Shown here: positions 32,304-33,251 of the stretch, in pieces
How positions within the stretch are numbered: the stretch's first letter is position 1
How the letters are laid out: every line of letters begins with the position of its first letter
From: Methanothrix sp.
GTDB taxonomy: Archaea > Halobacteriota > Methanosarcinia > Methanotrichales > Methanotrichaceae
NCBI GenBank assembly: GCA_963682135.1
Contig: OY821645.1
Location: forward strand, 1,920,001 to 1,984,000
Length of the DNA: 64,000 bases
Direction of reading: 5' to 3'
The notes under the pieces: model-generated
Told to the model about the DNA's origin: nothing
The model's database searches: none
The model's input: only the letters and a program-made list of their open reading frames with translations
Program-made: the position numbers and the translations under genes

Positions 32304-33251
32304 CTAGGTTTTTCCCCTAATCGGCATGCGTATTCTCTTTATCACGGCTCCTGTATCTCCATCTCTCAGAACAATAGTGGCCTGGGTGTAATAGTCGACC
32401 TCAATGGTTTCCGTTGATTCTATTGGGTAACTAAATGGATCACCATTGGCCATTTCATTATTTTTTATAACATCATCAATAGTAATAAATTGGTATTCGC
32501 TCTTGACGCCGTTGTACGTTACACCATCATGGAAAATTGCTGCTACGTACCCAGCCAAGGTGGATTTATAAGGGATTTGGAATTTTATTGTGCCTCTGTA
32601 AGCACTTAGGTCGCCTATGATCTTCTTGCCGGGTTGAAGCTCTACACTCACACCAGATTCGTCTCCTATTATGACTGATTTTGATTCTTGTCCGCCTATT
32701 CCCCAAGACTGGCTGTAAGATGCTGAATATGTTACACTGGCGCTGACAATACGTATTCCTACGCTCATCGACATCGACATTCCTAGAGTTAACGCGCCGC
32801 CTATTTCCCAGCTTGATGTTACTGTGTTTTGGACAGATTGTGAGATTGAGGCATTGAATGTAGCAGGTGTTGAGGTATTGTTCTCGAATACCCGAGAACT
32901 GACAATAACGGGCTCCAATTTGATATCATCAGGATTTACAATGATTTCGCCGTCAGGTGAAGAACACATCGAACGCGTTTTAACCTGATCTTGCAGCCTA
33001 TCATAATACTGATACATGTCCTGATTGTTCTCTTCCATTTCATCTGACCAAACAGGACTGAATAGACCGGAATGGTCTGGACTCTTTTTTAATAACTTAT
33101 TGATGGCATTATTATACTGCACTGGTATAAGATGGAATGTTTGGCACTCATCAGTCGTAATTATATGTTCGTCGTATCCTTCACATGTTACGGTTGCGCT
33201 TTTTCCATCCTCGCCAATTTGTATTTTCATAGAAATAGCCATATCGTTCAC
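32304..33251 (-). CDS. ETX/MTX2 (aerolysin-fold, spherulin-2A/hydralysin-like) beta-pore-forming protein; likely ATG start 33242
   Basis: EPVIVSSRVFENNTSTPATFNASISQSVQNTVTSSW...amphipathic hairpin...SYSQSWGIGGQESKSV..GVSVELQPG..RGTIKFQIPY; Ser/Thr-rich strands; AT-rich; no signal peptide. Confidence 0.8.
   Translation of the reverse strand: MNDMAISMKIQIGEDGKSATVTCEGYDEHIITTDECQTFHLIPVQYNNAINKLLKKSPDHSGLFSPVWSDEMEENNQDMYQYYDRLQDQVKTRSMCSSPDGEIIVNPDDIKLEPVIVSSRVFENNTSTPATFNASISQSVQNTVTSSWEIGGALTLGMSMSMSVGIRIVSASVTYSASYSQSWGIGGQESKSVIIGDESGVSVELQPGKKIIGDLSAYRGTIKFQIPYKSTLAGYVAAIFHDGVTYNGVKSEYQFITIDDVIKNNEMANGDPFSYPIESTETIEVDYYTQATIVLRDGDTGAVIKRIRMPIRGKT

Follow-up and report, generated by a model that had tools for sequence, protein, structure and literature searches.

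A leaderless aerolysin-fold protein encoded next to an NLR gene in Methanothrix is probably the product of a stand-alone, horizontally mobile cassette

The stretch of DNA analyzed here (the window) comprises 64,000 nucleotides (nt) of Methanothrix sp. contig OY821645.1 (positions 1,920,001 to 1,984,000) and carries on its minus strand a gene encoding a leaderless protein with an aerolysin/ETX-MTX2 fold, hereafter called the pore-former after its predicted activity. The gene lies directly downstream of one encoding an NB-ARC and TPR protein of the STAND/NLR type, within the interval between adk and pyrH. Our analysis makes it likely that the pore-former gene is a stand-alone, horizontally mobile beta-pore-forming cassette and that its adjacency to the NLR gene stems from the landing site rather than from a shared function. 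The coordinates of all features are collected in Table 1.

The open-reading-frame list of the window gives the gene as a minus-strand frame of 315 amino acids (aa) with a GTG start (32304..33251), and the peptide LTLGMSMSMSVGIRIVSASVTYSASYSQSW, quoted from it in an earlier reading of the sequence alone (the first-pass annotation), is indeed found at residues 154 to 183. Alignment of four orthologous upstream regions from Methanothrix placed this GTG, at 33251, within a conserved GGTGA Shine-Dalgarno box, and the orthologous start turned out to be ATG 33242 in the window, GTG in genome G035, and TTG in G074 and G066. Because GTG 33251, which would add 3 residues, sits inside this invariant box, we favor the start at ATG 33242; it yields 312 aa, which is the length of the closest database homologues, P0001 and P0002. 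GGTGA is the putative ribosome-binding site of the gene. The conserved block CCAAAACATTTATTTAA, which contains the TTTATTTAA box (33280-33288), looks like an archaeal BRE/TATA promoter and may function as one; upstream of it, the sequences of the four genomes are unrelated. The gap from the NLR stop codon to ATG 33242 is 220 nt. As first noted, the gene is AT rich: its GC content is 41.5% (39% at third codon positions, GC3) versus 50.1% for the genome, and only 7% of the 950-nt genome windows have a GC content as low. The corresponding GC and GC3 values are 54% and 60% for the NLR gene and 63% and 78% for pyrH, and the intergenic segment 33252-33462 has a GC content of 34.6%. The pore-former gene is single copy in the source genome. 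The contigs of X1 and X3, identical to the window over pyrH, the pore-former gene, and the NLR 3′ end, may derive from the source sample.

Profile searches with the protein itself matched neither PF03318 (ETX_MTX2) nor PF01117 (Aerolysin). The sole Pfam match was to CEL_III_C, an aerolysin-type pore module, at residues 136 to 184 and below the cut-off (E 0.059). NCBIfam gave only a serine-rich match of 13 bits (cut-off 650), PADLOC gave none, and the best result of a sequence search against the PDB was an antibody chain (E 0.24). Relatives were nonetheless recovered, 19 by a word-indexed search and 327 cluster representatives by an exhaustive one (E ≤ 1e-3). Among 128 aligned homologues, 28 matched PF03318 (best E 1.8e-11) and 9 matched PF01117. 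The PF03318 search that the first-pass annotation had proposed as a check was thus negative for the query and positive indirectly, through its homologues. The structure model is elongated, mostly beta, and multidomain, a fold in common with aerolysin domains 3 and 4, epsilon toxin, and parasporin-2; together with the profile matches among the homologues, it bears out the fold originally proposed.

The nearest named relatives place the protein more precisely. Bacterial homologues that NCBI and UniRef name "follicular epithelium yolk protein subunit" are 36 to 41% identical to it over 94 to 98% of the query; P0010 (E 4.5e-41) and P0016 (E 3.4e-38), for example, show 37 to 38% identity over 95 to 96%. 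The nearest ESM Atlas clusters, with scores of 0.98, bear the same name. The protein belongs to the aerolysin/ETX-MTX2 superfamily and, within it, to the follicular epithelium yolk protein subunit/megalysin-like subfamily, of which it is a new archaeal member. It was this family name that came up, in place of the spherulin-2A/hydralysin type to which the first-pass annotation had likened the protein. The moth yolk protein YP4 resembles spherulin 2a; no paper mentioning spherulin together with aerolysin was found in the literature searched. The subfamily has been described already: Walker et al. 2023 (PMC10629529), in passages on these proteins, treat moth yolk proteins and asp-caterpillar megalysins as aerolysin-like, with their closest relatives in bacteria and archaea, and state that megalysins permeabilize membranes. 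Archaeal aerolysin-like genes are not new either, since part of Szczesny et al. 2011 (PMC3110756) reports them in Methanosarcinaceae and shows an "insect yolk-like" cluster.

Searches for longer fused relatives came back empty, both when the single protein was run against 2913 candidates (547 to 2000 aa) and when alignment A2 was run against 8000 candidates (810 to 2310 aa); both results are weak evidence. Ten longer representatives (394 to 532 aa) included one with a B_lectin domain above the cut-off (P0024; 34.2 bits versus 32.4), one with a sub-threshold TNFR-like match, and eight with nothing.

In the predicted membrane-insertion hairpin lies the strongest amphipathic 13-mer of period 2 in the whole sequence, LGMSMSMSVGIRI, at residue 156, inside the quoted peptide. 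Serine and threonine make up 42% of residues 125 to 150 and 30% of residues 168 to 200, versus 18% overall, in agreement with the claim of Ser/Thr-rich strands around an alternating hairpin. The structure model places the two hairpin strands at residues 159 to 167 and 174 to 182, where its per-residue confidence (pLDDT) is lowest (68 to 76). The YSQSWGIGG flank is invariant among 18 sequences, and the amphipathic pattern is also kept in bacterial homologues. Homologue alignment further revealed that the C-terminal tail of 15 to 20 residues is poorly conserved. The ratio of nonsynonymous to synonymous substitution (dN/dS) is 0.19 to 0.28 among the Methanothrix copies, and the gene is under purifying selection. 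The protein has neither a hydrophobic leader (the maximum Kyte-Doolittle value of a 10-mer in the first 35 residues is 1.05) nor a transmembrane-like segment (maximum for a 19-mer in the whole protein, 1.32). Among 88 N-terminally anchored representatives, 57 lack an N-terminal extension and 31 have one of at least 12 residues, about 22 of these 31 being strongly hydrophobic and leader-like. Members of this family thus typically have no leader, and the lack of a signal peptide reported at first sight holds on both grounds.

Evidence for insertion came from a blastn comparison with the gene-less syntenic locus of G073, against which the window holds about 1.4 kb of extra DNA at ~32031-33433. 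This segment, which has a T6 run downstream of the gene (32175-32180), is bracketed by direct repeats with a spacing of 1523 to 1524 nt and 79 to 83% identity. A relic of the NLR C terminus (E 6e-6; E 1.1e-9 in a small search) lies on the pyrH side. Equivalent signatures were found elsewhere: in G035, a direct repeat of the same kind is accompanied by a piece of adk, a pyrH 5′ fragment is duplicated in G074 (89% identity), G066 has a pyrH 5′ fragment between the NLR and pore-former genes, and a metagenome-assembled genome (MAG) of Methanosarcinaceae has a duplicated target of ~740 nt (90 to 93% identity). In four contexts, the cassette is bracketed by imperfect direct repeats of the local target, 130 to 740 nt long and 79 to 93% identical. 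Such a pattern would be left behind if a circular DNA, bearing the cassette together with a homologous stretch from a related donor, had integrated by a single crossover. The adenylate kinase fragment of G035 (L004 6971-7198; residues 134 to 209, 72% identity) lies between the NLR and pore-former genes, with the intact adk 4 kb off, and may be a trace of a time when the cassette lay next to adk. A similar adk relic was sought upstream of the pore-former gene in the window and was not found.

Sequence divergence indicates a separate history of the cassette and its neighbors. Between the source genome (G000) and G035, synonymous divergence (dS) is 0.18 for the pore-former gene versus 0.84 for the NLR gene, 0.65 for the gene of the 137-aa protein that precedes it (p137), and 0.63 to 1.39 for pyrH, CBS, hisI, and adk. 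Relative to G000, G074 is closer than G035 in core genes (dS 0.38 to 0.66) and more distant in the pore-former gene (0.58). These discordant values mean that the cassette moved among lineages independently of its neighbors. The horizontal acquisition proposed from the sequence alone is therefore upheld by the GC shift, the flanking repeats, the discordant dS, and a patchy distribution, with the gene present in only 4/59 Methanothrix species genomes (4/30 of those at least 90% complete).

Beyond the genus, homologues with 34 to 41% identity occur in 17/177 Methanosarcinaceae genomes searched, and the total for Methanosarcinia is 21/392 genomes in 3/49 genera, so that the description of the gene as rare in archaea is roughly right. 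A scan of GTDB species genomes recovered 29 loci. The archaeal ones belong to Methanothrix and Methanosarcinales, and the bacterial ones to Aquimarina, Echinicola, Xanthovirga, Nitrococcus, Nitrosomonas, two Beggiatoa-like bacteria, Pantoea, Brenneria, a Clostridiaceae strain, Lacunisphaera, and Rhodobacterales. The Clostridiaceae strain (bacterium M8S5, L021 6241-8843) has three tandem paralogues, two of which match the query at E 3.6e-47 and 3.3e-27. A 90-row tree contains a tight clade of very short branches with members from Bacteroidota, Pseudomonadota, and Bacillota, a sign of recent interphylum transfer; for the Methanothrix clade, whose stem is very long at 2.42 changes per site, the tree gives no resolved position. 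In a 34-row LG+G4 tree, a single archaeal clade was not rejected by the approximately unbiased test (p-AU 0.63), the constrained tree being 8.15 log-likelihood units better. Rows excluded from the trees were L007 (a duplicate of L004), L008 and L010 (contig ends), and L026 and L027 (partial or split), and the 34-row tree also omitted five near-identical Aquimarina/Nitrococcus rows and most unnamed representatives.

The NLR gene appears to have a partner of its own. Its product matches NB-ARC (27.2 bits; cut-off 23.5) and TPR_12 (E 1.2e-31), and its N terminus (FHGQTVHGDQTII) has a 14-residue motif in common with the C terminus of p137 (FSGQTVHGNQTVI); the alignment score of 58 was reached by 0/500 shuffles. 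Homologues of p137 occur in 23/59 Methanothrix genomes, often in more than one copy, and G000 has a second one at C1:711091-711477, inside an open frame of 385 aa. Searches with p137 in Pfam, NCBIfam, and PADLOC gave no match. From the motif and the gene layout rather than a profile, p137 is likely a Bell-type, amyloid-coupled effector of the NLR. The layout is that of a Bell/BASS-NLR pair, and the NLR would therefore already have its executioner. Part of Dyrka et al. 2020 describes such Bell/NLR pairs; it shows one Methanothrix soehngenii Bell sequence, reports that Methanosarcinales have two matching pairs, and gives a gap of ≤10 bp for 57% of collinear pairs. For a system of this kind in E. 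coli, Ibarlosa et al. 2024 (Bab/Agp) report, in the portion on that system, defense against phage.

The first-pass annotation had raised the idea that the pore-former is a second executioner of this NLR system. In such a role, it would be a cell-suicide effector, activated directly or indirectly by the NLR, that perforates the membrane of its own cell from inside during abortive infection. Its genomic position would suit such a role: the gene is on the same strand as the NLR gene, as first described, and follows it immediately in all four Methanothrix genomes that have it (4/4, with two junction types), a constancy that counts against a mere landing site. The missing leader would also befit a cytoplasmic effector, and the island holds further conflict genes (HicAB in the window and an AAA_21 ATPase in G035). 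Nevertheless, we regard this explanation as quite unlikely. The motif common to p137 and the NLR is absent from the pore-former, for which local alignments scored 25 and 30, values reached by 243 and 60 of 500 shuffles, respectively. The genes are collinear but not tightly packed, since p137 and the NLR overlap by 1 nt, whereas the pore-former is set apart by the 220-nt AT-rich gap with its conserved promoter-like box. The syntenic array adk-p137-NLR-pyrH-CBS-rSAM-hisI exists without the pore-former gene in at least four genomes (G082, G001, G027, and G073), and p137 is far more widespread than the pore-former (23/59 versus 4/59 genomes). NLR alleles do not track the gene either; those next to it are only 44 to 73% identical to each other, and the G073 allele, 71% identical to that of the window, occurs without it. 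The discordant dS values argue in the same direction, as do the GC contrast with the NLR gene, the insertion signature, and the absence of a PADLOC match. Outside Methanothrix the linkage disappears: tblastn with the NLR and p137 over the family loci gave matches only in Methanothrix loci, a Pfam scan of 20 flanking proteins at other loci found no STAND or NB-ARC domain, and all of the complete Methanosarcinaceae genomes (5/5) have ~590 kb or more between the homologue and the nearest NB-ARC match. Recurring linkage to NLRs, once checked, is thus confined to one syntenic locus in a single genus, which leaves functional coupling unsupported by the criterion that the first-pass annotation itself had set.

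No other partner emerged from the neighborhoods of the family. The flanking proteins include a TonB receptor, GlmS, a response regulator, an HTH protein, HsdM, an HNH protein, an S41 peptidase, an aminotransferase, and TerD, and no neighbor family was common to different genera among 159 open reading frames. Defense-type neighbors do occur, namely, an HsdM fragment and TerD in a Nitrosomonas MAG (L018 3331-7101) and Schlafen AlbA_2 in G053 (L005 5267-6532); no defense-type partner was recurrent beside family members. The literature search on aerolysin with abortive infection or defense islands found no study linking them among those listed, the only one that mentions aerolysin being about Aeromonas. 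We explain the constant NLR adjacency by recombination within the variable adk-pyrH island, mediated by shared flanking sequence. Selection for the position was also considered: a pore-former stockpiled in the cytoplasm could be freed, or directed against the cell's own membrane, once an infected or attacked cell is killed by the Bell/NLR amyloid switch. If this were true, the attacker or neighboring cells would receive a toxin as a further result of altruistic death. Prokaryotic NLRs would then have an effector logic not seen before, and an aerolysin-type protein would for the first time be connected with regulated cell death in archaea. We deem it very unlikely.

Two further explanations concern the protein rather than its position. 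Like the moth yolk proteins or a nontoxic Bacillus thuringiensis crystal protein, it could have the fold without being lytic or forming pores and could serve in storage, structure, or development. Conservation across phyla of the hairpin and its invariant YSQSWGIGG flank speaks against this option, as do the persistence of a mobile accessory gene under purifying selection, the B_lectin fusion of P0024, an arrangement seen in lectin-toxins, and the membrane permeabilization by megalysins of the wider family that Walker et al. 2023 (PMC10629529) describe in the relevant passages; we hold it to be unlikely. The gene could instead be a decaying passenger without a current function in the source genome, as might be expected in a recombination-scarred region with gene relics and from the Methanosarcinaceae copies of G284, G203, G318, and G314, which are split or contain stop codons. 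However, none of the three complete Methanothrix copies has a broken frame (the G066 copy is split over two contig ends), dN/dS is low, and the promoter-like and Shine-Dalgarno boxes are conserved, which renders decay highly improbable. Two of the Methanosarcinaceae homologues, G314:C165:690-1535 and G284:C1:3734247-3735016, have an in-frame TAG or are split, and TAG in these pyrrolysine-using archaea could be read through instead of marking a pseudogene.

The preferred reading, an autonomous and mobile pore-former cassette, leads to the following model. The three-domain protein of ~312 aa would be a soluble monomer whose N-terminal domain attaches it to a target membrane; oligomerization would follow, whereupon the amphipathic hairpin (residues ~153 to 183) would swing out to build a beta-barrel pore. 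This mechanism is proposed by analogy with parasporin-2, epsilon toxin, and aerolysin. All three are known for a C-terminal activation peptide, and the last 15 to 20 residues of the Methanothrix protein might be its counterpart. Because it has no leader peptide, the protein would be kept in the cytoplasm and reach its target by cell lysis or unconventional export; a toxin released on lysis, as suggested at first, is possible. Its most plausible targets would be other cells, e.g., grazers or competitors, and the lectin fusion in P0024 fits surface targeting. The cassette of ~1.4 kb, with its own promoter-like box and putative ribosome-binding site, moves horizontally among Methanothrix and Methanosarcinaceae and would have entered the adk-pyrH island by recombination that duplicated the target.

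Few archaea are known to have aerolysin-type pore formers, and these findings add to them Methanothrix, an acetoclastic methanogen of key importance in digesters and wetlands; they also show that the gene travels among methanogens as a self-contained cassette. Should pore formation be confirmed, the protein would be one of the rare candidates for a methanogen weapon used in offense or against grazers, and it would allow study of how a leaderless beta-pore-former acts from or on ether-lipid membranes. The locus also cautions against taking adjacency in a variable island for functional coupling, the true NLR partner most likely being the upstream p137, with which the NLR has its motif in common.

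Table 1. Features of the pore-former locus and direct repeats at related loci
Feature	Position	Strand	Description
Coding sequence, leaderless aerolysin/ETX-MTX2-fold protein	32304..33242	-	312 aa from ATG 33242
Putative membrane-insertion hairpin GGALTLGMSMSMSVGIRIVSASVTYSASYSQSWGIGG	32701..32802	-	Residues ~151-184 (315-aa numbering); hydrophobic/polar alternation
Shine-Dalgarno box GGTGA (putative ribosome-binding site)	33248..33252	-	5 nt upstream of ATG 33242; invariant in four Methanothrix orthologous loci
Promoter-like block CCAAAACATTTATTTAA	33280..33296	-	38-54 nt upstream of start; nearly invariant in four genomes
Inserted cassette, ~1.4 kb	32039..33434	-	AT-rich upstream region, gene, and ~260 nt downstream
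Left direct-repeat copy	33435..33561	.	NLR 3′ end and ~30 nt past its stop; families D2 and D3
Right direct-repeat copy	31911..32038	.	Between pore-former gene and pyrH
NLR C-terminus relic, TPR-end fragment, 50 aa	31973..32122	-	46% identical to NLR residues 571-620; between cassette and pyrH
NB-ARC and TPR STAND/NLR protein, 630 aa	33463..35355	-	N-terminal motif FHGQTVHGDQTII
137-aa protein (p137)	35355..35768	-	Hydrophobic N-terminal helix; C-terminal motif FSGQTVHGNQTVI; 1-nt overlap with NLR start
Direct repeats, other loci	L004 6818-6957 and 8545-8685; L064 4531-4733 and 6012-6214; L033 7067-7803 and 9079-9812		

The adk-pyrH interval is a variable island. In the window, it also holds a HicA/HicB toxin-antitoxin pair (35849-36299, minus strand; Pfam E 1.2e-16 and 1.1e-15), and a metallophosphoesterase of 515 aa comes next (36516-38063); G035 has an AAA_21 (AbiEii-like) ATPase in the interval instead. 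The NLR gene itself varies at orthologous loci, its product being 549 aa long in G035, 630 aa in the window, 838 aa in G074, and 867 aa in G066. Three tandem 120-nt units with 87 to 89% identity (33602-33981) encode TPR repeats of the window's NLR, and the length variation is consistent with a sensor domain that gains and loses repeats. Other low-GC stretches of the window (51001-54000, 22001-25000, and 10001-11000; GC fractions of 0.30 to 0.41 versus a genome mean of 0.50) are possibly further acquired islands.

Among known pore formers, the protein compares in fold with parasporin-2 (Cry46Aa of Bacillus thuringiensis; PDB 2ztb), to which it is only 15% identical in sequence and from which it differs in its archaeal host. 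Parasporin-2 is deposited as a crystal inclusion and activated by proteolysis, neither property being known for the Methanothrix protein. Unlike Clostridium perfringens epsilon toxin and other ETX/MTX2 proteins, it does not match PF03318 and has no secretion signal. The closest relationship is with the yolk protein subunit/megalysin subfamily (moth YP4, asp-caterpillar megalysins, and bacterial relatives), given the full-length homology to bacterial proteins so named; the link to lepidopteran YP4 and the megalysins rests on database names and on passages of Walker et al. 2023 (PMC10629529). Compared with bacterial members, the Methanothrix protein has insertions of 8+2+2+4+6+6 residues, and it is devoid of the leader peptide that many eukaryotic-looking members carry. 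Within the locus, p137 and the NB-ARC-TPR protein fit the scheme of the Bell/BASS-NLR pairs (Dyrka et al. 2020) and of Bab/Agp (Ibarlosa et al. 2024) as set out in parts of those papers, i.e., a short effector whose C-terminal motif recurs at the NLR N terminus, with overlapping genes, whereas the aerolysin-like protein, which has no such motif and is set apart by a gap with a promoter-like box, does not. The aerolysin-like genes of Methanosarcinaceae, featured in part of Szczesny et al. 2011 (PMC3110756), are likewise members of the superfamily from archaeal methanogens; the Methanothrix gene differs from them in its genus, its divergent sequence, and its adjacency to an NLR gene, which is found only in Methanothrix.
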